Positions 3,299-37,086 of a DNA stretch of 37,086 bases are shown here, in pieces. The stretch's first letter is position 1. Every line of letters begins with the position of its first letter. The position numbers and the translations under genes are program-made. The notes beneath the pieces are model-generated. The model did no database searches, was not told the origin of the DNA, and saw only the letters and a list, made by a program, of their open reading frames with translations. Origin of the DNA: a virus (taxonomy: Duplodnaviria; Heunggongvirae; Uroviricota; Caudoviricetes); the IMG/VR virus record IMGVR_UViG_2671180770_000020, positions 1 to 37,086 of that record. One strand, given 5' to 3'.

Positions 3299-3375
3299 TT
3301 ACCGTTGAGGTAATAATTATGCTTATTTGGTTTGGTGTCAATAGATATGAGTTAAAAAAATTACCCGTAAGGTAA
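3299..3375. promoter_or_regulatory. Left operator/promoter region: two perfect TTACC-N5-GGTAA palindromes (3299-3313, 3361-3375) bracketing a putative leftward promoter
   Basis: Minus-strand TTGACA at 3336-3341 with a TAATTA/AATTAT -10 candidate at about 3313-3319; one palindrome overlaps the -10, the other lies upstream of the -35. Confidence 0.55.
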
Positions 3376-3386
3376 TCTATCTGGCA

Positions 3387-3410
3387 ATAAAAAAGCCGCC
3401 ATGAGGCGGC
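3387..3410 (-). terminator. Intrinsic terminator after the repressor gene
   Basis: Minus-strand hairpin GCCGCC-loop-GGCGGC followed by a T-run (A-run 3387-3394 on the plus strand), 23 nt past the repressor stop. Confidence 0.6.
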
Positions 3411-3432
3411 TTACTTACTGAAAAATATAGTT

Positions 3433-4017
3433 TTATTGTTTGCTTTTTTCGTTCTGGTTGATGACAAATTCAATGTAACTTTCGATCTTTGCTTTCTCGG
3501 TTTCGGGTAACAATGCGTAGCGTGAGCGGTCATAGTTGATAGTCGCAGGGTCGTGCGGGTGAATCAGTAGTTCATATCCGTGACGCCCGAATGCGGATGC
3601 AACATTCTCCAGGGTGGAAATGGAAACGCTGACCTCATTGTTTAACAGGCGACTGATTGTCACCTGGGCGACGCCGGATGCGCGGTGAAGTTTTCCCTGC
3701 GTTGAAAGGTCGCGGCTTTCGCTCATCCAGCGTTCCAGGTTGTGAGCCGCCAGCTGACCAATGTCGCTTGGGCCGACAGGCTGAAAACCTTCCTGAGAAA
3801 GCGAGCGATCGATATCAAGCCAGTTACGGGGTTTATTGGCGGCAGCTTCAATTTTTCGCGCAACCTGGTCGCCGATAACCTTCTTGCCAAGAGCCCAGCG
3901 GTTTACCAGATTTGCCTGAGTTCCAAGTTTTTCTGCCATCCGCGTCTGAACACCATTGAATTCACGGTCGATCAAGTCGTTGAGATTTTGCCTGCGGACG
4001 TCCTGGATACTTTTCAT
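3433..4017 (-). CDS. Prophage repressor (CI-like) with HTH_XRE domain(s) and no S24/LexA-type peptidase domain
   Basis: 194 aa; N-terminal Cro/CI-type HTH (...QTRMAEKLGTQANLVNRWALGKK...); a second HTH-like segment (...VTISRLLNNEVSVSISTLENVASAFG...); no Ala-Gly cleavage site or Ser/Lys peptidase motif seen; divergent from the cro-like gene. Confidence 0.7.
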   Translation of the reverse strand: MKSIQDVRRQNLNDLIDREFNGVQTRMAEKLGTQANLVNRWALGKKVIGDQVARKIEAAANKPRNWLDIDRSLSQEGFQPVGPSDIGQLAAHNLERWMSESRDLSTQGKLHRASGVAQVTISRLLNNEVSVSISTLENVASAFGRHGYELLIHPHDPATINYDRSRYALLPETEKAKIESYIEFVINQNEKSKQ

Positions 4018-4072: not shown

Positions 4073-4135
4073 TTACCCAACAGGTAAATGCACCCCACAG
4101 GTAACTATCCTTGATTTTTGTTACCTTATGGGTGA
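4073..4135. promoter_or_regulatory. Right operator/promoter region: TTACC-N5-GGTAA at 4073-4087, GGTAA half-site at 4100-4104, near-palindrome TTACCttatgGGTgA at 4121-4135
   Basis: Putative rightward promoter TTGATT (4111-4116), 17-nt spacer, GAATAT (4134-4139); the 4121-4135 site sits between -35 and -10. Confidence 0.55.
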
Positions 4136-4171
4136 ATATTTATTATCTGAAATAAATATCAGGCAATAGCT

Positions 4172-4402
4172 ATGAGCGATAACGGACATTTCGATTTCAA
4201 AAAGCACTGGCTTGCACTTACTCCGGATGAGCGTGAAGCCTTCGCACAGGAAGCCGGAACGACGAGTCACTATATCCAGACTCACTTAACAGGTAAGCGC
4301 AAAATGCCAGGTAAGGTATTGATGAATGGGCTTTTTAAAGCCTGTAAAACAAGACAATGGCTGCGCTCAAAAGCAGAATTGGCATACTTCTTCTACTCAT
4401 GA
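4172..4402 (+). CDS. Cro-like small DNA-binding protein (first rightward early gene)
   Basis: 76-aa ORF divergent from the repressor; HTH-like ...REAFAQEAGTTSHYIQTHLTGKRK... Confidence 0.5.
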   Translation: MSDNGHFDFKKHWLALTPDEREAFAQEAGTTSHYIQTHLTGKRKMPGKVLMNGLFKACKTRQWLRSKAELAYFFYS

Positions 4403-4424
4403 TATCCAGCCACAACCCTCTGTA

Positions 4425-4448
4425 GACCGCCATCCGGCGGTCTTTTCA
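4425..4448 (+). terminator. Intrinsic terminator just downstream of the cro-like gene (tR1-like position)
   Basis: GACCGCC-atcc-GGCGGTC followed by TTTTCAT. Confidence 0.55.
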
Positions 4449-11529: not shown

Positions 11530-12378
11530 TTACTTTTGTGTTTTTGATTTTCTTTGATAGGTGGAATTTAAATCACCATTTATATTTACTAGAGGATTAT
11601 TCAATAATGTACTGATTTCTGGATTGTTAATTCCAGTAACGCCAAATTTCTTTACGGACTCATTAAGGTCTTGTAATGATTTTAGACCTACAAACCCATT
11701 AGCAATTGTATTATTTGTTGCCAAAGGAATGTTTTCCTTATAGGACTCATATTCGTTTTTTAAATTTTTGTGAGCTTTTTCTAGATTTTCTAGTTTAGAT
11801 GTTGTTTCATCAATAACCTTAGATAATTCTAAAATACGAGCTTGTGCTGCGCGCAGTTCTGTCTCCCTCTCTTTCAATTCAGATGTGAGTTGTCCCATTC
11901 TGTCTTTTGAAAGAATTATTTCCTCTTTCATGTCTTGAATGTTTTTTTCAGCGCCTGTTTTTACTTTTTCGTAAGTAATGTCTTTTTTAGCCAGCAATCT
12001 CTGTAGCCGTGTTTCACGTTGTATTTTTCTTGCCTTCCGGTGGTTTTCGATTGAGTCATTATTATCAAGAGGTTTTGCTTGCCATACGTTAATGATATTG
12101 TTTACCCATGGTAATAGGCAGCAGATAGTAATTACAGATAAGCATGGATAAAACATAACAGTTTTCCATGTGCTGTTATCTGAGATGTATGAAATTTTAT
12201 CTATTATATTTGATTTGCTAAAAAACAGATAAAGAAGTGATTTCCAGTTGAAGGCGCACCAGGACATAACAAAAGCACCAAGCACAGGGTTTTTGGCTCT
12301 ATGCACGGCAGTGTTTGCAGTAGATAAAAACAGCTCTTTGAACGATTCAAACATACTAATTACCTTAAAGTTTTTCAT
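11530..12378 (-). CDS. Moron: membrane-anchored coiled-coil protein of unknown function
   Basis: 282 aa from ATG 12378 (MKNFKVI...); markedly AT-rich relative to neighbours; opposite strand to the flanking late genes; two hydrophobic segments then a long Lys/Glu-rich coiled coil; own terminator and palindrome upstream. Confidence 0.55.
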   Translation of the reverse strand: MKNFKVISMFESFKELFLSTANTAVHRAKNPVLGAFVMSWCAFNWKSLLYLFFSKSNIIDKISYISDNSTWKTVMFYPCLSVITICCLLPWVNNIINVWQAKPLDNNDSIENHRKARKIQRETRLQRLLAKKDITYEKVKTGAEKNIQDMKEEIILSKDRMGQLTSELKERETELRAAQARILELSKVIDETTSKLENLEKAHKNLKNEYESYKENIPLATNNTIANGFVGLKSLQDLNESVKKFGVTGINNPEISTLLNNPLVNINGDLNSTYQRKSKTQK

Positions 12379-12382
12379 GATT

Positions 12383-12397
12383 ATACCTTTAAGGTAA
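12383..12397. promoter_or_regulatory. Near-perfect palindrome copy (aTACCtttaaGGTAA) abutting the moron start
   Basis: A minus-strand TATAAT overlaps the site just upstream of ATG 12378. Confidence 0.4.
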
Positions 12398-12410
12398 TTT
12401 GTGGTCATCA

Positions 12411-12436
12411 GGCAAAAAAATACCCGGCGAACCGGG
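12411..12436 (-). terminator. Intrinsic terminator between the tRNA and the moron
   Basis: Minus strand CCCGG-ttcg-CCGGG followed by TATTTTTTTG. Confidence 0.5.
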
Positions 12437-12515
12437 CGAACTGGAAGCAATGAGTTATGCCTTCCGTGGCTGTACTGGTTTACAGCATGAAGTCATCGCA
12501 ATGGCGTCCTGCTGT

Positions 12516-12600: not shown

Positions 12601-12677
12601 TGGCGTGGCATGCAGGATTCGAACCTGCGACCAACCGCTTAGAAGGCGGTTGCTCTGTCCAACTGAGCTAATGCCAC
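12601..12677 (-). tRNA. tRNA-Arg (anticodon UCU), 77 nt with encoded CCA
   Basis: Hand-folded cloverleaf: acceptor GUGGCAU/AUGCCAC, D-arm GCUC-AGUUGGACA-GAGC, anticodon arm ACCGC-CUUCUAA-GCGGU, variable loop UGGUC, T-arm GCAGG-UUCGAAU-CCUGC, discriminator G, CCA. Confidence 0.9.
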
Positions 12678-18812: not shown

Positions 18813-21283
18813 TGGCTATCAGTTGGATCCAGCCCAGCTTTGCCGGTGGTGAGATTGGACCGTCGTTGTACGGGCGTATCGACATGGCGAAGTACCAGGT
18901 AGCATTGCGCAAGTGCGATAACTTTATCGTGCGGCAGTATGGCGGCGTTGAGAATCGACCTGGTACGCGTTTTGTCGGTGCCGCCAAATACCCAAATCGG
19001 AAATGCCGCCTGATACCGTTCCAGTTCTCGACGGTTCAGACTTATGCTCTGGAGTTCGGACACCAGTACATGCGCGTTATCAAAGATGGTGCGTTGGTGC
19101 TGAACAGCAGCAATGTTATTTATGAAATTGCCACGCCATATACTGAAGCCGATCTGTTCCGAATTAAATTCACGCAAAGCGCAGACGTGCTTACGCTGGT
19201 TCATCCGGCATACCCGCCGAAAGAGTTGCGACGTTATGCGCATGACAACTGGCAACTGGTTGATGTGGTAACGAAGAACGGGCCATTTGAAGATATCAAT
19301 ATTGACGAGTCAGTGACGGTTTATGCCAGCTCCAGCACCGGGACAATTACGTTAACGGCAAGCGCCTCTATTTTTGGCGCGGAGCAGGTAGGCAAATTGT
19401 TCTATCTGGAACAGCCAGCAGTGGATTCAGTACCGGTATGGGAAACCAGTAAGAGTACGTCGATTGGCGATATTCGCCGTGCAGACAGTAACTACTATCG
19501 CGCCGTTACAGCAGGCAAAACAGGTACTTTGCGCCCTTCGCATACAGAAGGCACATCATGGGATGGCTGGGGCGGATCCGGTGATGATGATACTGGCATT
19601 GAGTGGGAATATCTGCACAGTGGTTTTGGCATTGCCCGTATCACTGCTGCAAATGGCACTACTGCAACTGCTGAGGTGATTTCCTATATCCCTTCGCAGG
19701 TCGTTGGCGAGGATAATGCCAGCTATAAATGGGCTAAATATGCCTGGAACAGTGTTAATGGTTATCCTGGCACTGTTGTTTATTATCAACAACGTCTTTA
19801 CTTCGCCGCATCGACTGCGTTCCCTCAGACTATCTGGGCCAGCCGTACCGGGGATTATAAGGATTTTGGCAAAAGCAATCCTACGCAGGATGACGACAGA
19901 ATTATCTACACCTATGCCGGGCGTCAGGTTAATGAGATCCGTCACCTGATTGATGTTGGTTCGCTGGTGGCGCTGACTTCCGGAGGTGAGTACGTCATCA
20001 CCGGCGACCAGAACAAAGTGTTAACCCCATCATCATTTGCATTCAGCTCTCAGGGATCAAATGGCTCAAGCAACGTCCCGCCAATTGCCGTGGCGAATAT
20101 TGCTCTGTTCGTCCAGGAGAAAGGCAGCGTTGTCCGTGATCTGGCCTACTCATTCGATGTTGACGGCTATCAGGGGAACGACCTGACCATCCTTGCCAAT
20201 CATCTTTTTCAGAAGCACAGCATTGTTGACTGGTGCTTCTCGATTGTCCCTTACTCCAGTGCCTTCTGCATTCGTGATGACGGTAAATTACTGGTGATGA
20301 CCTATTTGCGTGATCAGCAGGTTTTTGCATGGGCACCACAATCCAGTACCGGAAAATATGAAAGCACATGCAGTATCAGCGAAGGCAATGAAGATGCGGT
20401 GTATTTCGTCGTTAACAGAACCGTTAACGGGCAAACAGTGAGATACATCGAGAGACTGTCCAGCCGTTTATTTACCAGCGATGAAGATGCTTTCTTTGTT
20501 GATTCTGGCCTTAGCTATGATGGAAGAAATACGTCTGACAGAACGATGACCATCACTGGTGGTTCTGGTGAATGGGATTACCGTGCGGAATATACAATCA
20601 GTGTTTCTGGTGGCGCGTACTTCACCAGTAGTGATGTCGGCGCGCAACTACAGTTCCCTTATACCGGAACCGATCCTGGTATTGGCGATGAAGTGTCAAA
20701 AGAATTACGTTGCGACATTATTTCTGTAACCAGCAATACTGCTGTAGTGGTTCGTGCTAACAGGAACGTCCCGCCATCCCTCAGGAATACGGCCACCACG
20801 AACTGGCAGATGGCGCGCCGGACATTTGGCGGCTTGTCTCATCTTGAAGGCCAGACCGTAAACATTCTTTCTGATGCGAATGTTGAGCCACAGAAAGTTG
20901 TTTCCGGAGGTGCCGTCACACTGGAATCTCCGGGGGCTGTAGTGCACATCGGCCTGCCAATAACTGCTGAATTCGAAACACTGGATATCAACATTAACGG
21001 ACAGGAAACGCTGCTGGACAAAAAACAGGTGATCCCCTCCGTTACTCTGGTTGTGAATGCCAGTCGCGGCATCTGGGCGACTACGCCTGGCGGTAAATGG
21101 TACGAATATCCACAGCGTGAATTCGAGTTCTACGATGATCCTGTTGATGATGCTACCGGAAAAGTAGAAGTGAAACTGGACAGTAACTGGGGCAAAAACG
21201 GACGTGTAAAAATCCGTCAGCTTGATCCGTTGCCGCTGTCTGTTCTTGCCGTTATTCCTCGCCTTACTGTTGGGGGATTCTGA
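18812..21283 (+). CDS. Large virion structural protein (823 aa; possible tail hub or tube component)
   Basis: Long ORF in the late operon, translationally coupled on both sides; function assigned by size and context only. Confidence 0.5.
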   Translation: MAISWIQPSFAGGEIGPSLYGRIDMAKYQVALRKCDNFIVRQYGGVENRPGTRFVGAAKYPNRKCRLIPFQFSTVQTYALEFGHQYMRVIKDGALVLNSSNVIYEIATPYTEADLFRIKFTQSADVLTLVHPAYPPKELRRYAHDNWQLVDVVTKNGPFEDINIDESVTVYASSSTGTITLTASASIFGAEQVGKLFYLEQPAVDSVPVWETSKSTSIGDIRRADSNYYRAVTAGKTGTLRPSHTEGTSWDGWGGSGDDDTGIEWEYLHSGFGIARITAANGTTATAEVISYIPSQVVGEDNASYKWAKYAWNSVNGYPGTVVYYQQRLYFAASTAFPQTIWASRTGDYKDFGKSNPTQDDDRIIYTYAGRQVNEIRHLIDVGSLVALTSGGEYVITGDQNKVLTPSSFAFSSQGSNGSSNVPPIAVANIALFVQEKGSVVRDLAYSFDVDGYQGNDLTILANHLFQKHSIVDWCFSIVPYSSAFCIRDDGKLLVMTYLRDQQVFAWAPQSSTGKYESTCSISEGNEDAVYFVVNRTVNGQTVRYIERLSSRLFTSDEDAFFVDSGLSYDGRNTSDRTMTITGGSGEWDYRAEYTISVSGGAYFTSSDVGAQLQFPYTGTDPGIGDEVSKELRCDIISVTSNTAVVVRANRNVPPSLRNTATTNWQMARRTFGGLSHLEGQTVNILSDANVEPQKVVSGGAVTLESPGAVVHIGLPITAEFETLDININGQETLLDKKQVIPSVTLVVNASRGIWATTPGGKWYEYPQREFEFYDDPVDDATGKVEVKLDSNWGKNGRVKIRQLDPLPLSVLAVIPRLTVGGF

Positions 21284-29678: not shown

Positions 29679-30314
29679 TTATTCTATTGGCAGCTTATGC
29701 TTTGAAATTATGGCCAATCTGTTTTGGAAGTTTTCCGCATCACCCCACAACCAGGTTTCACCTTTCTCAAGCTCTTCCTCGTTATTCATCTCTATCAGTT
29801 CGCATGTCATCATGTCGTAACCATAGAGGTGGAGGCCAAGTTCCAGTGCGTCATACATGCGAGCCTGCCAGAACGACATGCCTTCATGAGTCTGGTTGCG
29901 ATCAGACACGATGATATCGTACCGTTCCAAGAGGTAGTTCATGAAGATGATGCCGGCGAAATCATGAAGCACAGCACGATGCTTAGGCTTCTGGGTTCTC
30001 CATACCAATATCTGCGTGACAGGTCGGCAGTTAAGATAGCTGTCAGGCTGGATAATGACACGATTGTAATACACAACCTCTTCGGTGAGGTCATTTATCA
30101 GTGCCAGTTCAAAGTGCGCCTGTGGAATCTCGCCTTTCTTACGATCGTCTACACGGACAACGCGGTATCCAGGAGCCAGAGAAACGCCTTTGACATCAGA
30201 TGTGACATCGTTGCCGTTCACTAACTCTGAATACAGGGCGCGGTTGTCTGGAGTTTCGTTCAGATGAGCGAAAACCTCAGTTACCTTTGCCGGATTCAGC
30301 AGTTGTTGTGGCAT
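29679..30314 (-). CDS. Hypothetical cytoplasmic protein (211 aa) in the accessory island
   Basis: ATG 30314 with GAGGTGA upstream; no recognisable motif. Confidence 0.5.
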   Translation of the reverse strand: MPQQLLNPAKVTEVFAHLNETPDNRALYSELVNGNDVTSDVKGVSLAPGYRVVRVDDRKKGEIPQAHFELALINDLTEEVVYYNRVIIQPDSYLNCRPVTQILVWRTQKPKHRAVLHDFAGIIFMNYLLERYDIIVSDRNQTHEGMSFWQARMYDALELGLHLYGYDMMTCELIEMNNEEELEKGETWLWGDAENFQNRLAIISKHKLPIE

Positions 30315-30352: not shown

Positions 30353-30367
30353 TTACCCGTAAGGTAA
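30353..30367. promoter_or_regulatory. Perfect palindrome TTACCcgtaaGGTAA (identical 15-mer to the 3361-3375 copy)
   Basis: Between the antirepressor stop (with a downstream hairpin at 30409-30424) and the start of gene 29679-30314. Confidence 0.5.
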
Positions 30368-30432: not shown

Positions 30433-31083
30433 TCAGAAGAACCCTGCCTTGTCGTTGATGTATTCCGCGTGAGTCTGGATATCACGCAGGCATTTGCTCA
30501 CACCGACGATGTAGCAGAACATGGTGGTCAGCTCCGCCGCCGCGCCCGATACATCGTGCCCGTCTTCCTGTAACTGGTTCAGCAGATTCATCAGCAGTGA
30601 GTTCTCCGTCAGGCCGAGAACACCAGATGGGGAATGAATCAGACTGCGGTAGCCGGGCTTCAGCGGTGCACTGTATTCTTTTTTGTCTTCCAGCTTGATC
30701 GCCTCCATAATGGCTGGCATGAAGCCTGACAAGACCTTCTCCACTTTTGTTTCTTGTTGTCTTAAACGTTTCTCGCATTCAATGAAGTAGCGTCGCACCT
30801 GGCGACCTTTTTCGTTACGCTCGACCATCGCCAGCTCTTTGGCTGTATCGAGGGTGAGGTGGTAGTCTTTTGCAGGACGGCCTCTGCCTATTTTTTCCCG
30901 AACTTGGGAAATAATCATAAAGTCTTGATTTTCAACGAAACCATATTCAGCAATTCGTTCGACAATCCACGAAGCAAATCGCTTACCCACATCGAGGAAA
31001 GTGTGTAAATCACGGGCATTAACGAGAAGAGCGGTTTCGTTGGATATAGTGCCGTTGAATACGGGGATGAGTTGAGCGTTCAT
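30433..31083 (-). CDS. Antirepressor (AntA-type N-terminal domain)
   Basis: 216 aa; N-terminal ...LIPVFNGT...NARDLHTFLDVGKRFASWIVERIAEYGFVENQDFMI... matches the remembered AntA/AntB antirepressor domain; GGAG upstream of ATG 31083. Confidence 0.7.
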   Translation of the reverse strand: MNAQLIPVFNGTISNETALLVNARDLHTFLDVGKRFASWIVERIAEYGFVENQDFMIISQVREKIGRGRPAKDYHLTLDTAKELAMVERNEKGRQVRRYFIECEKRLRQQETKVEKVLSGFMPAIMEAIKLEDKKEYSAPLKPGYRSLIHSPSGVLGLTENSLLMNLLNQLQEDGHDVSGAAAELTTMFCYIVGVSKCLRDIQTHAEYINDKAGFF

Positions 31084-31240
31084 TATGGCGTCTCCACTTA
31101 GCGAATTACATCACCACCGCTGAGACCAATCAGATGGTGGTGAACTGAACGGAGTTGGTCTTACCGGCCTAAGTGGTACCGGCGTCCTTTCGGACCCCCA
31201 TTCAGCCCACCATAATTCTGGCATGACTGTGCTATACGCA

Positions 31241-31263
31241 TAAAAAAACCACGTCTGGCGTGG
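31241..31263 (-). terminator. Intrinsic terminator between the small Ant-like gene and the antirepressor gene
   Basis: Minus strand CCACG-ccaga-CGTGG followed by TTTTTTTAT. Confidence 0.45.
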
Positions 31264-31354
31264 TATGCGCCACTTAGTAATCCGGGAGACCAATCCCGGC
31301 ACTGGATTTTGCCAGTGCCCGATTACTATGGCACAAGAGGAGTGCGATGTAAAT

Positions 31355-31369
31355 TTACCGCAAAGGTAA
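31355..31369. promoter_or_regulatory. Perfect palindrome TTACCgcaaaGGTAA in the leader upstream of the antirepressor gene
   Basis: Followed by the near-palindrome GGTAATTACA at about 31389-31398. Confidence 0.45.
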
Positions 31370-31400
31370 ATATAAGCACTCCGCTTGGTAATTACAAACC

Positions 31401-31658
31401 TTATCTGGTTTGTTTTCGTAATTGTTCGGCACAATAGTCGAGATGTGTTTGCAGATCCTGCATAGACATCTGTGAGCTGGTGACGTAGTTAATCAGTGCA
31501 GTCAGTTCGGCAAGTGGGCCATCGACATTAAATCCATCCTTATCGAGATCCCGGAGTAATTTCATCAAGTGCGATCCCTCCACCAGTGACCTGACGCCTC
31601 CCGGCGTGTGAATCCTTTCGGTAAATCCCTCTTCCAGTGGATAGTGATACTGCTGCAT
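31401..31658 (-). CDS. Small protein (85 aa) paralogous to the C-terminal domain of the adjacent antirepressor; LexA-box-associated
   Basis: MQQYHYPLEEGFTERIHTPGGVRSLVEGSHLMKLLRDLDKDGFNVDGPLAELTALINY...DLQTHLDY aligns by eye with antirepressor residues about 130-205 (...YSAPLKPGYRSLIHSPSGVLGLTENSLLMNLLNQLQEDGHDVSGAAAELTTMF...DIQTHAEY); GGAGAAG upstream of ATG 31658. Confidence 0.6.
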   Translation of the reverse strand: MQQYHYPLEEGFTERIHTPGGVRSLVEGSHLMKLLRDLDKDGFNVDGPLAELTALINYVTSSQMSMQDLQTHLDYCAEQLRKQTR

Positions 31659-31679
31659 CTTATCTTCTCCATGCAATAA

Positions 31680-31695
31680 CTGTATAAATATACAG
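31680..31695. promoter_or_regulatory. LexA (SOS) box CTGT-N8-ACAG
   Basis: aaCTGTATAAATATACAGta at 31678-31697, a near-consensus match to TACTGTATATATATACAGTA, 22-37 nt upstream of the small Ant-like gene start on the transcribed side. Confidence 0.7.
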
Positions 31696-31734
31696 TAGCA
31701 AATAATTTGTTTGCTATCCAGCACGTTTTGCGAA

Positions 31735-31749
31735 TCACCTGAAAGGTAA
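31735..31749. promoter_or_regulatory. Near-perfect palindrome copy (tCACCtgaaaGGTAA) upstream of the LexA box
   Basis: About 40 bp beyond the LexA box in the divergent intergenic region shared with the tail fiber gene. Confidence 0.4.
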
Positions 31750-31853: not shown

Positions 31854-33848
31854 ATGACGGTCTCAACCGAAGTTGACCACAACGAATATACAGGTAACGG
31901 TGTTACAACTACGTTCCCTTATACCTTTAGGATTTTCCAGAAATCTGATCTGGTGGTGCAGGTGATTGACCTTGACGAGAATATCACTGTGCTGGCTCTT
32001 GATACTGATTACGCAGTCACTGGTGCGGGAGGCTATAGAGGCGGTAATATAATACTGTCGAAGGCATTGGCCAACGGTTATCAGATCTCTATATCACGAG
32101 AGCTCCCGGTTACTCAGGAAACAGATCTGCGTAATCAGGGTAAATTCTTTGCAGAGGTGCATGAGGATGCGTTTGATAAGCTAACGATGCTGATTCAACA
32201 ATGTCGTAGCTTGTTTCGTCTTGCACTTTGCAAGCCATCAAGTATTGCAAACTGGTACGACGCTTTAAATAACAGGATTAGAAATCTTAAAGATCCAGAA
32301 AGCCCTCAGGATGCAGTAACTTTAAGTTATCTTGAAGGGTATATAGAAGGTGGTGATAGTACTTTGCGTCCAGATATTACAAGAACTGGAGCTGTAGGGA
32401 ATAATATACAGCAAGCCATAAACTTATCTATAGCCGGTCAAACTGTAATTACGATGAAAGATGATGAAATTGTATCTTCATTGTTAAATGAATATGGTGT
32501 TGAAATTGAGCAACGCAGGGGGCGTGTATTTAATACAGAAGGTGTTCAACTAACAACGTATTCTGACCCTCGTTCCCGTTTTGTAACTGGTGACCAATAT
32601 CTTAATTATGTTATTAGCAAGATGATAAAAGCAGATGGCGTGGATAAATCACAGAAAACATATATTTTGTGGTCTGGTGACTCCACGATTGTTGGTGTTA
32701 ACTCTGAATTATGGCCACCAGCAACTATTGCTGATTTTTATGCAAAAAGGTATGGAATTATTGATGTAAAAAATACATCGTTAGGTCATTCAGGTAAAAC
32801 TCTATACGAATGGGGTAATTGGTATATTGATCAGGAATGGTCTGTTTTTTCTGCTGCTGATTTGATTGTTTTACGCTGGGGAATTAACGATCCATATTAT
32901 GGTTATACATTGGATCAAGTAAAAGACGCATTAGATAGAGGCCTTTCCAAGTTACGAAATAACAAATCAGTTTCCCAGCAATCAATTATTATCATGTCCC
33001 CAAACTCAACATCAGACACACCAAACGGACGTGATGAAAAATGGTATGAACAGTTAACAGCCGTACTTAGAGCCAAAGCAAAACAATATAAGTGTATGTT
33101 TTTTGATACTTACGGTATGTGGCAGGATTCGCGAGGATCTGCTGGTAACTGGCTTGACGACCCTTATGGCGATGGCAGGGGAATACACCCAAACTCAACA
33201 TTTAGCGCACAGATACATAAATTATTATTTGAATATATTTATGGACCGTGTGCTGTTATAAATGGGAGTAGCAACCTTTTTTCTAACAATGGTTCTTCCA
33301 TACAATTCATCAATAGCTCATATCCGCCAAATACTTTTCACATGGGGACTTCATGGTGGAGAACAAACCCTGATGATGCTTCTTGGCCTCTTGACGGTGT
33401 TATTCAGGTTGATAGATTTGTTGACGGAATAGTAGTACAAAAAAATTATGGTTATTCTTCAGATAATGCTCGCGTTTGCTTAATGAGGATTGGAAGGATT
33501 AGTGAGAATACATGGAGTACATGGCGAGGTAATCAGTATGATATGAGTGGCATATTGCAAAATGGTTGGTCTGTAGGTGAGGCAAGAAGTGGAACATATC
33601 AGAAATCAGCCGAGGGCGTTGTTACTTTATCTGCTGTTTTAACAGGTGGAAATACATCTGTTGGCACAGTTATTATGGTATTGCCAGAAGGGTTTAGACC
33701 AAAGAATGATATTTCTTATATTCCATCAGGTACTGATTCATCGGTTGCCCTCATTAATATACTTTCAAACGGTAAAGTTACAATTCAGAGCTATCCGTCA
33801 GGAACAGTTCTTGTAATTAATACGACATTCCCTTCATTAGTTAATTAG
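31854..33848 (+). CDS. Tail fiber/tailspike with C-terminal SGNH/GDSL-type esterase domain
   Basis: 664 aa; N-terminal virion-anchoring-like segment (MTVSTEVDHNEYTGNGVTTTFPYTF...); GDS(L)-like motif ...ILWSGDSTIVG... and downstream ...DGRGIHPN... (Asp/His catalytic-type motif); C-terminal two-thirds is clearly more AT-rich than the N-terminus. Confidence 0.7.
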   Translation: MTVSTEVDHNEYTGNGVTTTFPYTFRIFQKSDLVVQVIDLDENITVLALDTDYAVTGAGGYRGGNIILSKALANGYQISISRELPVTQETDLRNQGKFFAEVHEDAFDKLTMLIQQCRSLFRLALCKPSSIANWYDALNNRIRNLKDPESPQDAVTLSYLEGYIEGGDSTLRPDITRTGAVGNNIQQAINLSIAGQTVITMKDDEIVSSLLNEYGVEIEQRRGRVFNTEGVQLTTYSDPRSRFVTGDQYLNYVISKMIKADGVDKSQKTYILWSGDSTIVGVNSELWPPATIADFYAKRYGIIDVKNTSLGHSGKTLYEWGNWYIDQEWSVFSAADLIVLRWGINDPYYGYTLDQVKDALDRGLSKLRNNKSVSQQSIIIMSPNSTSDTPNGRDEKWYEQLTAVLRAKAKQYKCMFFDTYGMWQDSRGSAGNWLDDPYGDGRGIHPNSTFSAQIHKLLFEYIYGPCAVINGSSNLFSNNGSSIQFINSSYPPNTFHMGTSWWRTNPDDASWPLDGVIQVDRFVDGIVVQKNYGYSSDNARVCLMRIGRISENTWSTWRGNQYDMSGILQNGWSVGEARSGTYQKSAEGVVTLSAVLTGGNTSVGTVIMVLPEGFRPKNDISYIPSGTDSSVALINILSNGKVTIQSYPSGTVLVINTTFPSLVN

Positions 33849-33999
33849 TTGTTTTTAGATTGCGACTAAAAATCGCAATCTAAAAAACACAAATGATGAT
33901 TTTGTTGTTTACTTATAACATAATAATTCATATATGGTTTGGTTTTGATGGTGTTCTACCAGAAACTGGAGATTTGATGAATGTTAAATGGTGGTTGAT

Positions 34000-34404
34000 A
34001 TGTCATTTCAAATAACTAATGATCATGTAAATCAGTATCTTACTGTTGGTTCTCTTGCTGCGGTTATTGGTGGGACTCCACCTGAAGTTGCTTTGGGTTC
34101 ACTTGCCGGAGCTGTGATTTTTGTTACCTCTGCTATCGAGTATCCAATCCGTCGTCGTGTTCTTCTGTCAGTGCTCAGCTTTATTTGCGGCCTTCTCTTT
34201 TACAAACCAGCAGCATCAATTCTTATTGGCATAGCCAGCCTGATCCCTACCATCACACAGGACTCTTTTGAGAAAGGGATTGTTTTCTCTGCTGGCGCAT
34301 TCGTGTCAGCAATTGTCGCTGTGCGTATTGGTATCTGGCTCTATCACCGTTCCGATAATCCACGCGAATTAATGCCGGGGAGAAAAGACGATGGTAACGC
34401 ATGA
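34000..34404 (+). CDS. Holin-like membrane protein
   Basis: 134 aa from ATG 34000 (GGTGG upstream); multiple TM segments; first gene of the lysis cassette. Confidence 0.5.
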   Translation: MSFQITNDHVNQYLTVGSLAAVIGGTPPEVALGSLAGAVIFVTSAIEYPIRRRVLLSVLSFICGLLFYKPAASILIGIASLIPTITQDSFEKGIVFSAGAFVSAIVAVRIGIWLYHRSDNPRELMPGRKDDGNA

Positions 34405-34699
34405 GCTTTTTTTACTTATCACCAATGCGGTTATTTGTACTGGCATAGCAATTCGCGTTGTCACTTTCCAGCGTAACGGATCTCAACATCGAAGATGGGG
34501 TGGGTGGATTGCTTATTTCCTGATTGTTGCTGCTGCGAGTATTCCAGTTCGTGTCGTTTATGCAATCTGGTTACGCACGCCAATGGCTGTGGATTTATCT
34601 GAGGTCATTATCAACGCTGTCATGCTTGCTGCGGTTCTTAAAACTCGCGGTAACGTCGTTCAGATTTTCAAAATAACGAGGTCTAAATATGGAGATTAA
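34391..34699 (+). CDS. Second small membrane protein (holin/antiholin-like)
   Basis: 102 aa, about 3 TM helices, overlapping its neighbours on both sides. Confidence 0.45.
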
Positions 34700-35318
34700 A
34701 CAATTCCAGCGAGCTGCTGGTATTAGCGAGGCGCTGGCCGCTCGCTGGTTCTCGCATATAACTTCTGCGATGAAAGAGTTTGGTATCAGCAAACCAGAAG
34801 ATCAGGCAATGTTTATTGCTCAGGTCGGGCATGAGTCTGGAGGCTTCACCCGGTTGCAGGAAAATTTCAACTACAGCGTAACCGGATTGGCTAACTTCGT
34901 TCAGGCTGGGCGTCTCACTCAGGGGCAGGCTAATGCACTTGGTCGCCGTGCTGGTGAACCACCATTGCCACTCGAGCGCCAGCGCGCGATCGCAAATCTG
35001 GTGTACAGCAAACGCATGGGGAACAATGCCCCTGGTGATGGCTGGAATTACCGTGGGCGCGGGCTTATCCAGATTACCGGTTTGAATAACTATCGTGACT
35101 GTGGAAACGGTCTGAAAGTTGACCTGCTGGAGAATCCTGAACTGTTGGCGCAGGACGAATACGCGGCTCGTAGCGCGGCGTGGTTCTTCTCCAGCAAAGG
35201 TTGCATGAAGTATACCGGCGATATTGCACGTGTAACTCTGATTATCAATGGTGGCAGGAATGGCATCGACGACCGGCGCGCGCGGTACGTCACTGCCAGT
35301 AAGGTGCTGGCTGTATGA
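34689..35318 (+). CDS. Endolysin, glycoside hydrolase family 19 (chitinase-like lysozyme)
   Basis: 209 aa; ...[12 protein letters not shown]...[17 protein letters not shown]... are the conserved catalytic-region motifs of GH19 endolysins. Confidence 0.8.
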
Positions 35319-35797
35319 TCTGGGTATTCGTAAAAGCATACTGGAAACAGATGCTTATCGTGTTGATGCTTGCTGCTCTGTTCATCGTCGGAGTGGTTGC
35401 TTGGAATATACACGGCAGCCGCCAGTACGATGCCGGGTATGCGCAGGCGGAAGAAGACCGCAAAGACGAAGAAGACAAAGTTCGTCAGTACTACGAACAG
35501 GAGAAAGTGACCAATGAACGTGAAGCTCAGCAGAGGATCGACCAGGCGCGCAATGATGCTCTTGATGCTGCCGCTCGCGCTGGCCGGTTGCAGCAACAAC
35601 TCTTTGCCATCCGTGAGCAGCTCAGGCAGTATAACGCCATTGTCGGCGCTGGGACGTCAGCCGCAGACACCGGAGTTTTGCTTGCCGACGTGCTCAGCAA
35701 ATCTCTCGAGAGAAACAGACAACTGGCAGAGTATGCTGACCGGGCAGCCGAAGCCGGAAGAGTCTGCGAAAAACAGTATGACACCCTGACCAGATAG
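35315..35797 (+). CDS. Rz-like inner-membrane spanin
   Basis: 160 aa; N-terminal TM helix then coiled coil; ATGA overlap with the endolysin; contains an embedded lipoprotein ORF. Confidence 0.6.
35514..35789 (+). CDS. Rz1-like outer-membrane lipoprotein spanin, embedded in the Rz frame
   Basis: Alternative-frame ORF wholly inside the Rz gene; lipobox ...LPLALAGC...; Pro/Ser-rich mature part. Confidence 0.55.
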   Translation: MNVKLSRGSTRRAMMLLMLPLALAGCSNNSLPSVSSSGSITPLSALGRQPQTPEFCLPTCSANLSRETDNWQSMLTGQPKPEESAKNSMTP

Positions 35798-35946
35798 CAT
35801 GGCATTTTTCATGGTACTGATTTCCTGTGACGGTATATAAAACGGTACGAGGAAAATTTAGTTTTGGAAAAATGTTATCACTCAATTGGTTATGGTATCC
35901 GTAAATAATTGAGTGGGAATGATTTGATCCCTGCACTATGAATGAA

Positions 35947-35978
35947 CAAAACCCTCTGTTACTACAGAGGGTTTTTTA
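35947..35978 (+). terminator. Intrinsic (possibly bidirectional) terminator after the lysis cassette
   Basis: AAAACCCTCTGT-tact-ACAGAGGGTTTTTT. Confidence 0.6.
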
Positions 35979-36015
35979 TACTCACGAATCATAGGCTTGA
36001 AGTTACTGACATCGC

Positions 36016-36555
36016 TTAGTTAAACCAGCTGTCCGATTTGTTCTCTTCTGCTTTGCCCACGCTTTTCATCAGATCGCGACCGCCTTCAGTCATATTCCTG
36101 TTTGCGTCAGCTTCAGATTGCACCACATCGGTTTGCGCAGCTTTGTGCTTCAGTTCCTGATCGATAAATTCGTTTTCTCGCTTAACGCGGGCTTCTTCTT
36201 TCGCCAGCGCCAGTTTTTGTTTCTGAATCTCTAAGCTGCGTAGCTCATCTTCATAACTTTGATCGCGTTTTTTGTCCGCAGTGGCTTCGGCGTCCAGTTT
36301 ATCCTGACGAGCTTTCTTATTCGCCGCTGCCGTTGCCGCTCTTTTATTAGCCGCGGCCTGGGCGTTTGCGCGACGTTGCTTCTCTTGCTGGATTTCCCTG
36401 TTGCGCTCCGCGACCCATTCGTCATGCTGCCTTTGCTCTTCATTTTTACCTTGCTGTTCCGCTTCTGCGACAGCAGAGAGTTGATCCTGCAATGATGAGG
36501 CGATAGCCGGATAGCTTAAGGAGGCTAAGATGGCGCAAAGAAAAACTTTCTTCAT
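36016..36555 (-). CDS. Secreted coiled-coil protein of unknown function (host-flanking gene or terminal moron)
   Basis: 179 aa; GGAGGA upstream of ATG 36555; N-terminal signal peptide MKKVFLCAILASLSYPAIASS; highly charged Gln/Lys/Ala-rich body. Confidence 0.55.
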   Translation of the reverse strand: MKKVFLCAILASLSYPAIASSLQDQLSAVAEAEQQGKNEEQRQHDEWVAERNREIQQEKQRRANAQAAANKRAATAAANKKARQDKLDAEATADKKRDQSYEDELRSLEIQKQKLALAKEEARVKRENEFIDQELKHKAAQTDVVQSEADANRNMTEGGRDLMKSVGKAEENKSDSWFN

Positions 36556-36570
36556 GACTCCTCCTGATCA

Positions 36571-37086
36571 TTAGCTCTTTTCAGGACATTTGGTATTTGG
36601 CTGAATACGCGTTTCGTTATACGTCGTGGTAATAACAACGGCTAAACCTGTCGTAAACTGGCACTCTTTACCCACCTGGGTGGAGGTATACACTTTGGTG
36701 CCTTCCTTATACGTTAGAGAAACACCTTCCACTAAGGTTTTATCATTCACCATAGAACCTGCTGCCGCGCCTACAGCTCCGCCGCCAACTGCACCTGCCG
36801 TCGTTCCGGAATTGCTGCCAGACCCCACGTTGTGGCCGATTACACCGCCAGCGCCTGCACCAATAAGCGCGCCGAAGGCTTGTGCGTTCCGTTTATTTCG
36901 GGAGTTGTCTACGGCAACTTTTGCGGGAAGAATGGAAATAATATTAACGGTTTTAGTTTCTTGTTTGGTATTCAGTTGATCGGTTTGATAAACATCGGCG
37001 GCATGATCATCAGCATTTGACTGGCATCCTGCCAGAGTAAATGACGCTAACATTGCCACAGGCAGAAGACATTTTTTAAATTTCAT
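36571..37086 (-). CDS. Lipoprotein with glycine-zipper (SlyB/Pcp-like) domain
   Basis: 171 aa with its start codon at the window edge; lipobox ...FTLAGC...; Gly/Ala-rich ...GALIGAGAGGVIGHNVGSG...GAVGGGAVGAAAGS... Confidence 0.55.
   Translation of the reverse strand: MKFKKCLLPVAMLASFTLAGCQSNADDHAADVYQTDQLNTKQETKTVNIISILPAKVAVDNSRNKRNAQAFGALIGAGAGGVIGHNVGSGSNSGTTAGAVGGGAVGAAAGSMVNDKTLVEGVSLTYKEGTKVYTSTQVGKECQFTTGLAVVITTTYNETRIQPNTKCPEKS

Follow-up and report, generated by a model that had tools for sequence, protein, structure and literature searches.

Two questions are raised by a 194-aa protein encoded in the window, the whole 37,086-nucleotide stretch of viral DNA analysed here. If this presumed repressor lacks an autocleavage domain, how is it inactivated on induction? 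And do the two helix-turn-helix (HTH) segments ascribed to it both read DNA? The system with which the locus is compared throughout, the Rep-Ant pair of Salmonella phage SPC32H, was reportedly described by Kim and Ryu in 2013 and by Kim et al. in 2016.

Identification of the repressor

Judged by homology, the product of the gene at 3433..4017 is the master lysogeny repressor, Rep, and the phage is a temperate E. coli podophage of the epsilon15/phiV10 type (genus Uetakevirus). Its immediate setting is as follows.

3433..4017, minus strand: rep, encoding the 194-aa lysogeny repressor (from the ORF list; ATG start; coordinates include the stop codon)
3393..3412, minus strand: intrinsic terminator 3' of rep; the same terminator is annotated in phiV10
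4172..4402, plus strand: cro-like early gene of 76 aa, divergent from rep (phrog_35 'transcriptional repressor', E 5.6e-13)
4424-4443: terminator of the cro-like gene

According to phmmer, residues 1-190 of Rep match the PDB chain 5d50_A, 'Repressor' (E 3.5e-42, ~43% identity). Residues 89-190 match 5d4z, a C-terminal construct comprising Rep residues 92-198. When an AF2 model of Rep was compared with the PDB using Foldseek, 5d50 (chains A/K/I) and 5d4z were likewise the best matches, followed by generic XRE HTH proteins. The GenBank record of epsilon15 also cites 5d50_A.

The rep region is 97-98% identical at the nucleotide level to phiV10, HEMP4, TL-2011b, ZX5 and further E. coli Uetakevirus podophages. 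The protein is 100% identical to that of HEMP4 and 99.5% identical to phiV10 p40 and vB_EcoP_ZX5 ORF21. Identity falls to about 76-78% in Enterobacter phages and about 45% in Klebsiella phages, and is 43.2% to epsilon15 gp38 and 42.7% to SPC32H rep (KC911856). Among 5.8 billion proteins we found 86 relatives, mostly of about 194 aa with a few shorter fragments, distributed over Escherichia, Citrobacter, Lelliottia, Serratia, Raoultella and others.

Overexpression of ZX5 ORF21 abolished free phage and lowered the mRNA of holin and endolysin by >99.9% (PMC9782041). Given the 99.5% identity of the two proteins, Rep is predicted to repress lytic genes in the same manner.

Domain organization of Rep and absence of an autocleavage module

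In a citing paper, SPC32H Rep is described as having a DNA-binding domain (DBD) at its N-terminus, a dimerisation domain in the middle (MDD) and, at the C-terminus, the CAD (PMC9986798). Three corresponding domains were delimited in the protein encoded here.

3802..4017, minus strand: N-terminal HTH DNA-binding domain, Rep residues 1-72, with the recognition helix at residues 35-43 (AF2 helices, alignments, PHROG)
3562..3753, minus strand: second HTH_3-fold domain, Rep residues 89-152, the equivalent of the SPC32H MDD (PF01381 and the 5d4z alignment)
3436..3561, minus strand: C-terminal domain, Rep residues 153-194, the equivalent of the SPC32H CAD (5d50_A/5d4z alignment; 43% identity)

The three segments align with SPC32H Rep without gaps except in the linker, with identities of 53% in the N-terminal, 34% in the middle and 43% in the C-terminal domain. 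The AF2 model, built from 44 homologues and of moderate confidence (pLDDT 67), contains three helical blocks (residues 4-59, 85-150 and 164-193) with low-confidence linkers between them. Its global TM-score to 5d50 is low (~0.33) because the model does not fix the arrangement of the domains, and it served for secondary structure and for the ranking of matches only. Alignment and AF2 blocks thus agree on the three-part layout of an SPC32H-type Rep; the roles of the domains are those assigned in PMC9986798.

The preliminary description had assigned an N-terminal HTH to the protein, and this assignment was borne out. The first AF2 block contains HTH helices at residues 24-31 and 35-43, and PHROG repressor families cover residues 1-76 (E 1e-10 to 1e-11). 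Pfam matches in this region were sub-threshold only (YdaS-type PF15943, E 3e-4, residues 21-61; DUF739). A second HTH had been placed near residues 120-150, which proved roughly right. The second AF2 block is a five-helix XRE-like domain with HTH helices at residues 106-114 and 118-125, and HTH_3 (PF01381) matches residues 106-147 (38.5 bits, cut-off 23; E 1.2e-9); HTH_26 was matched as well. The gathering threshold of HTH_3 is therefore passed by the middle domain of Rep and not by the N-terminal one, and PHROG repressor or regulator families match both halves of the protein. As a separate matter, duplication of an HTH within Rep received no support: hhalign of the N-terminal against the middle sub-alignment gave a probability of 16%, with nothing but the HTH helices aligned.

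The protein had also been described as devoid of the S24 peptidase module of LexA and CI, and the searches agreed. A Pfam profile search of Rep returned no Peptidase_S24 match at E<=1, no LexA/CI-type C-terminal fold was among the Foldseek PDB matches of the AF2 model, and precomputed Pfam annotation held no S24 domain in the 86 homologues. Ten other ORFs of the window gave no S24 match at E<=0.01, and a search elsewhere in the window found no further repressor, S24 protein or ImmA-like protease. We propose that Rep, lacking the S24 module, is not cleaved upon RecA activation. The contrary reading, that Rep is inactivated by proteolysis through a cryptic autocleavage activity or an ImmA-type partner protease, deserves almost no credence. 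The searches of Rep and the neighbouring ORFs found no S24 or other peptidase domain. Homology to 5d50_A, with its three non-catalytic domains, accounts for the entire chain, and cleavage is not the outcome given for such repressors in reviews (PMC7380047).

Operators and early promoters

With at most one mismatch allowed, the palindrome TTACC-N5-GGTAA occurs at 14 sites in the window, against 0.66 expected by chance. The sites start at 3299, 3361, 4073, 4121, 4458, 6404/6466, 9432/9450, 12383, 13001, 30353, 31355 and 31735; an additional site, with two mismatches, starts at 4090. The palindrome is identical in form to the sites annotated as 'protein_bind: repressor' in the epsilon15 record, with which these sites are syntenic, and the operator sequence is the same in this phage and SPC32H. 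The sites most relevant to the switch are the following.

3299-3313 and 3361-3375: left operator pair (OL) with a spacing of 62 bp, on either side of a leftward early promoter predicted at 3313-3341 on the minus strand
4073-4087 (perfect), 4090-4104 (two mismatches) and 4121-4135 (one mismatch): right operators (OR) between rep and the cro-like gene
31355..31369: perfect Rep-type operator, flanked by two predicted tandem promoters that precede isrK and kept in phiV10 (20497-20511)
31735..31749: Rep-type operator with one mismatch between the ant promoter and the tailspike gene, syntenic with the epsilon15 repressor-binding site at 19895-19911

The predicted leftward promoter between the OL sites reads TTGACA-17-AATTAT, and syntenic pairs at the identical 62-bp spacing are present in phiV10, SPC32H and epsilon15. 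On the right, the operator at 4121-4135 overlaps the −35/spacer region of a predicted rightward promoter at 4118-4146. The OR sites are spaced by 17 and 31 bp here versus 17 and 30 bp in SPC32H and epsilon15. Operator spacing is thus kept in four genomes, both at OR (17 plus 30-31 bp) and in the 62-bp pairs found at OL and bordering the replication region. Based on these sites, Rep is predicted to bind operators and would recognise palindromes of about 19 bp with the form W-A-TTACC-N5-GGTAA-T-W.

The operators are scattered over the whole window, some of them with conserved spacing. At about six helical turns, the 62-bp pairs would fit a Rep tetramer that bridges two sites, and thus looping mediated by tetramers.

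Contribution of the second HTH to DNA binding

The middle domain of Rep is, by its profile match, a bona fide HTH_3 fold. By analogy with the SPC32H homologue it is probably a dimerisation module, such that Rep would have two HTH segments in terms of fold and not of DNA binding. The earlier suggestion of two HTH segments thus holds for the folds and probably fails for the second domain as a reader of DNA.

We also considered that Rep has two functional DNA-binding domains, with the middle HTH_3 contacting DNA as well and each subunit reading two elements. The middle domain carries the canonical HTH_3 signature above the Pfam cut-off, and its putative recognition helix is conserved: among 44 homologues R123 is invariant and Q118 nearly so, and T120 is invariant among four phages. 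The GenBank note on phiV10 p40 reads 'two helix-turn-helix motifs (PF01381); similar to putative repressor epsilon15p38'. Nevertheless, we regard this arrangement as highly improbable. The homologue's middle domain is described as a dimerisation domain and its DBD as N-terminal (PMC9986798 and PMC9638917). The middle domain of Rep has a net charge of 0 versus +5 for the N-terminal domain. It is also the least conserved folded domain with respect to SPC32H, yet the operator sequence is unchanged. Finally, in a symmetrised profile of 18 perfect operators from two divergent genomes, no position outside the ~19-bp palindrome was conserved.

In a four-phage alignment all six residues of the N-terminal recognition-helix motif, N36-L-V-N-R-W41, are invariant. 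The alignment of 44 homologues shows no variation at N36, R40 or W41 and almost none at L37, whereas V38 and N39 are the majority residues. The domain roles of the homologue, the difference in charge and the conservation of N36-W41 together indicate that only the N-terminal domain of Rep reads DNA. The constancy of the operator despite middle domains that are 34% identical, and its restriction to a single palindrome, point to the same conclusion.

A small antirepressor behind a LexA box

The preliminary description had linked the repressor to a LexA-box module at 30433-31749. This region comprises a small LexA-controlled ant, isrK, C4 and a larger antirepressor gene. The LexA box proved real and unique in the window; the region is, however, not one LexA-controlled gene. 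Its elements nearest the box are as follows.

31401..31658, minus strand: ant, small antirepressor of 85 aa (coordinates include the stop codon; PDB 5d50_E 'Anti-repressor protein', E 1.4e-47)
31678..31697: LexA (SOS) box, AACTGTATAAATATACAGTA, twenty bases upstream of the small ant, agreeing with the consensus at 18/20 positions

Homologues of both partners of the 5D50 complex are therefore present in the window. The small Ant shares about 89% identity with SPC32H Ant and 98.8% with the small Ant of ZX5; no Pfam family was found for it. A ribosome-binding site (RBS), GGAG, lies at 31667-31670, eight bases 5' of the gene.

When the window was searched with the 20-nt LexA consensus allowing two mismatches, AACTGTATAAATATACAGTA was the single match, and 100 shuffles gave none. 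By contrast, the core CTGT-N8-ACAG with one mismatch was not enriched in the window (14 found vs 12.9 expected), and the full 20-nt consensus alone was discriminating. The LexA box, a TGGATA −35-like element, the RBS and the adjoining Rep-type palindrome are conserved in phiV10, SPC32H and epsilon15.

The two partners also occur together. Among 50,697 phage records, all of those bearing Ant also contained Rep (35/35), and 35/36 of those with a full-length Rep contained Ant, the sole exception being PP488543 (138 kb). Consistent with the initial proposal, a repressor without self-cleavage that is inactivated by a LexA-controlled antirepressor matches the published SPC32H Rep-Ant system as described in secondary sources (PMC9638917, PMC9986798 and PMC7380047). 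SPC32H, with a Rep that is 43% identical, is the one phage in which the small LexA-controlled Ant has been tested.

A second antirepressor behind isrK and C4 RNAs

On the minus strand, the small ant is followed 3' by the Rep-type operator at 31355..31369, isrK, C4 and a gene for a 216-aa antirepressor, in this order.

31242..31318, minus strand: isrK-family sRNA gene (Rfam RF01394, 67.7 bits, cut-off 50), with its own terminator at 31248-31264
31133..31217, minus strand: C4-family antisense RNA (Rfam RF01695, 61.2 bits, cut-off 45)
30433..31083, minus strand: second, large antirepressor of 216 aa (AntA PF08346, E 8e-28; phrog_377 'anti-repressor Ant')

The large antirepressor consists of an AntA N-terminal domain and, from about residue 137, an Ant-like C-terminal domain. 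The latter shares 40% identity with the small Ant, matches 5d50_E (E 5e-14) and, in an alignment, is identical to that of ZX5 ORF4. In total, the window encodes a single Rep and two Ant-like domains. PhiV10 likewise has isrK and C4, and the Ant-like C-terminus of its large antirepressor looks truncated; SPC32H and epsilon15 have neither the RNAs nor the large ant. We take the arrangement of isrK, C4 and large ant to recall the immI operon of P1.

A search for exact complementarity between C4 and the leader of the large ant identified two C4 loops. One, CCACTTAG, pairs over 8 nt with 31094-31101, overlapping the RBS; the other, AGACCAA, pairs over 7 nt with 31123-31129. Duplex energies of the whole IsrK and C4 sequences with the leader did not clearly exceed those of shuffled sequences, of which 15/300 and 83/300, respectively, reached the observed value. 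Control of the large ant by IsrK and C4 is accordingly a suggestion from complementarity. A 37-aa ORF (31111..31224, minus strand) overlaps C4 and stops 28 nt before the ATG of the large ant, so that no icd-like coupling of the overlap type was seen.

In ZX5, overexpression of ORF4, the large antirepressor, reduced lysogens from 1e9 to 1e6 (~1000-fold) and rep mRNA by 75% (PMC9782041). The drop in rep mRNA hints that Rep may activate its own promoter. The ZX5 lysogen induced spontaneously at high titre, and the antirepressor examined in that work was the large Bro-N one (PMC9782041).

These data raise the possibility that physiological induction depends on the large AntA/Ant-domain antirepressor, under the control of IsrK, C4 and Rep, and that the small Ant is redundant or serves for crosstalk with other prophages. 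The large protein is the one that was tested, and works, in the closest relative, ZX5 (PMC9782041), and its C-terminal domain is Ant-like. Moreover, the order isrK-small ORF-antirepressor has been characterised in Gifsy-1 as a translational switch (PMC4825925), and antirepressors that act on non-cognate repressors have been documented (PMC3121763). Nevertheless, we consider this unlikely. It is the small ant and its LexA box that are strictly conserved and that accompany Rep in nearly every record, whereas the module of isrK, C4 and large ant is absent from two of the compared phages and seemingly truncated at the Ant-like C-terminus in phiV10. The routes through the small and the large Ant are, furthermore, not mutually exclusive.

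A model for the switch

Overall, the locus is very probably explained by a non-cleavable Rep that silences the prophage from its operators and by a LexA-controlled small Ant that acts as inducer, where the unchanged application of this scheme to the present phage is inferred. The direct basis comprises the domain content of Rep, the absence of S24, the homology of both partners, the LexA box, the enrichment and synteny of the operators and the co-occurrence of Rep and Ant. Binding as a tetramer, the mechanism of Ant, the dependence on LexA and the repressor and antirepressor phenotypes are taken from the literature on homologues and would apply here by analogy.

In this model, the N-terminal HTH of Rep would read the operators, the middle HTH_3-fold domain would dimerise, and the short C-terminal domain would form tetramers and dock Ant. 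Bound to the operator clusters at the divergent early promoters that flank rep, and to about ten other sites at the boundaries of transcription units, Rep would keep the prophage silent. DNA damage that inactivates host LexA would free the promoter of the small ant, some 27 kb distant in the window. The 85-aa product would then bind the C-terminal domains of Rep and pull it off the DNA. The 216-aa Ant-domain protein behind isrK/C4 and the Rep operator probably has a reinforcing or modulating role in the switch.

The CAD of SPC32H Rep is described as a p53-like 'TetDloop' that forms tetramers and binds Ant (PMC9986798). On DNA, SPC32H Rep is a tetramer in which the DNA-binding pairs are formed across dimers; tetrameric Ant takes two Rep dimers and thereby breaks the Rep tetramer (PMC9638917). 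Self-cleavage of LexA leads to production of an antirepressor that inhibits the repressor through protein-protein contact (PMC7380047). From the enriched and syntenic palindromes at spacings of 17/30 and 62 bp, we predict that Rep likewise binds its operators as a tetramer and would be released by a tetrameric Ant.

Comparison with known systems

The solved precedent is the Rep-Ant pair of SPC32H (5D50, 5D4Z). The two phages belong to the same genus and share gene positions, full-length homology of Rep with its three-domain layout, a closely similar Ant, the LexA box with a Rep-type palindrome upstream of ant, and the operator palindrome with its spacing. They differ in that the Rep proteins are 43% identical and that SPC32H is without isrK, C4 and the large antirepressor.

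ZX5 (ORF21/ORF4) and phiV10 (p40) are closer still in sequence, with near-identical Rep and small ant and, in ZX5, an identical Ant-like C-terminal domain of the large antirepressor. In ZX5 the roles of repressor and antirepressor were shown by overexpression (PMC9782041). The N-terminal domain of the large antirepressor is, however, Bro-N in those phages and AntA here.

The same logic is found in Gifsy-1/Gifsy-3, with GfoR/GfhR and the LexA-controlled GfoA/GfhA, and in CI-Tum of coliphage 186, where a non-cleavable repressor is combined with a small LexA-controlled antirepressor encoded outside the immunity region (PMC3121763 and PMC7380047). The likeness to Rep-Ant is one of circuit logic, with no relationship in sequence seen, and the Gifsy pairs have been proposed to act as dimers, whereas those of SPC32H are tetramers.

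With lambda CI, P22 C2 and LexA, Rep shares a repressor-type N-terminal HTH, divergent early promoters, multiple operators and induction linked to SOS. By contrast, Rep has neither the S24 peptidase domain nor a cleavage site. The SOS signal would therefore enter through LexA control of ant and not through RecA-stimulated self-cleavage.

Finally, the large ant resembles P1 immI (C4 RNA-icd-ant) and isrK-orf45-anrP of Gifsy-1 in being preceded by isrK and C4 RNAs, in the complementarity of C4 loops to its leader and RBS, and in the Rep operator at its promoter region. The module differs in being attached here downstream of an SPC32H-type LexA-controlled ant. In Gifsy-1, isrK-orf45-anrP is a translational switch (PMC4825925), and in the window the 37-aa ORF over C4 occupies the position that orf45 has there.

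Significance

The Rep-Ant switch is already known at the levels of structure, genetics and database annotation. The present finding re-identifies it, given the crystal structures 5D50/5D4Z, the genetics of SPC32H and the overexpression results for a protein of 99.5% identity. Its use lies mainly in annotation: many copies of rep in the databases are labelled 'helix-turn-helix protein' and copies of ant 'hypothetical protein'.

Residual interest lies in a possible two-tier antirepressor module, so far undescribed, and in the geometry of the operators. Both the second Ant-domain antirepressor behind isrK/C4 and the operator geometry could guide induction work on phiV10-type prophages, including the O157 typing phages.

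It is conceivable, and we put it forward tentatively, that antirepression in phiV10-like E. coli phages works in two tiers, a circuit for which SPC32H offers no described counterpart. The SOS response would first derepress the small Ant and so remove Rep. The loss of Rep would then allow the Rep-operated promoter (31355-31369) to drive isrK, C4 and the second Ant-domain protein, whose translation the C4 and IsrK RNAs would gate. If true, such a circuit would lock induction in by feed-forward or set a threshold for it, and immunity modules of the SPC32H type and the P1/Gifsy type would be fused onto one repressor surface.

Antirepressor genes and intervening RNAs

The second antirepressor encoded in the window comprises an AntA N-terminal domain and an Ant-like C-terminal domain. 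The latter is homologous to small Ant, the 85-aa antirepressor (40% identity), and is identical to the C-terminal domain of ORF4, the large antirepressor of E. coli phage ZX5. By contrast, the N-terminal domain of the large antirepressor is Bro-N in ZX5 and phiV10, indicating an exchange of N-terminal domains while the Ant-like module stays constant. The phiV10 version seems to have a truncated Ant-like C-terminus.

30433-31083, minus strand: second antirepressor (large ant), 216 aa
31111-31224, minus strand: putative 37-aa ORF, overlapping the C4 RNA
31133-31217, minus strand: C4-family antisense RNA (Rfam)
31242-31318, minus strand: isrK-family sRNA (Rfam), with its own terminator

The isrK- and C4-family RNAs separate the small and large ant genes (31133-31318, minus strand). 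The large ant leader is exactly complementary to two C4 loops, and one of these complementarities overlaps its RBS. Both RNA families are likewise present in phiV10; unlike the window, SPC32H and epsilon15 lack both. The 37-aa ORF may be translated or may merely be C4 sequence read as an ORF. Its ZX5 counterpart is annotated as an 'ash family protein', and orf45 occupies the same position in the isrK locus of Gifsy-1.

Other ORFs and a tRNA gene

29679-30314, minus strand: 211-aa ORF, phrog_1349, downstream of large ant
36016..36555, minus strand: DUF5384 ORF, beyond the lysis cassette
36571..37086, minus strand: ORF with glycine-zipper and TraT-like matches, beyond the lysis cassette
11530-12450, minus strand: 306-aa ORF, listed with a TTG start, with the terminase genes on one side and the tRNA on the other
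12604-12677, minus strand: tRNA gene

The 211-aa ORF had no match in Pfam or PADLOC; the intergenic region upstream of it contains a perfect Rep-type operator (30353-30367). In the region 33849-37086, no O-antigen acetyltransferase gene separates the tailspike (31854..33848) from the lysis genes, whereas phiV10 carries one at this location. Two ORFs, both on the minus strand, lie past the lysis cassette. PHROGs labels the family of the second 'DNA methyltransferase', an assignment that its Pfam matches do not support.

The 306-aa ORF matches phrog_4780, a family labelled unknown function. No Pfam family was found for it, and its PADLOC matches were weak and coiled-coil/SMC-like (LmuB, E 7e-5). 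Because it stands in place of the shorter phiV10 p03, the ORF is possibly a moron. Rep-type palindromes lie on either side of the tRNA gene, at 12383 and 13001; SPC32H has an annotated tRNA-Arg at the matching position.

Genome-wide distribution of Rep-type operators

The window contains 14 TTACC-N5-GGTAA palindromes, the predicted binding sites of the lysogeny repressor Rep, versus 0.66 expected.

Starts of the 15-bp palindromes
3299, 3361, 4073, 4121, 4458, 6404, 6466
9432, 9450, 12383, 13001, 30353, 31355, 31735

These palindromes are not confined to the immunity region, but occur at transcription-unit boundaries genome-wide. Pairs spaced by exactly 62 bp occur at two syntenic places and are kept in phiV10, SPC32H and epsilon15. 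Together, the spread of the palindromes and the 62-bp pairs suggest that a tetrameric repressor effects global repression and DNA looping.
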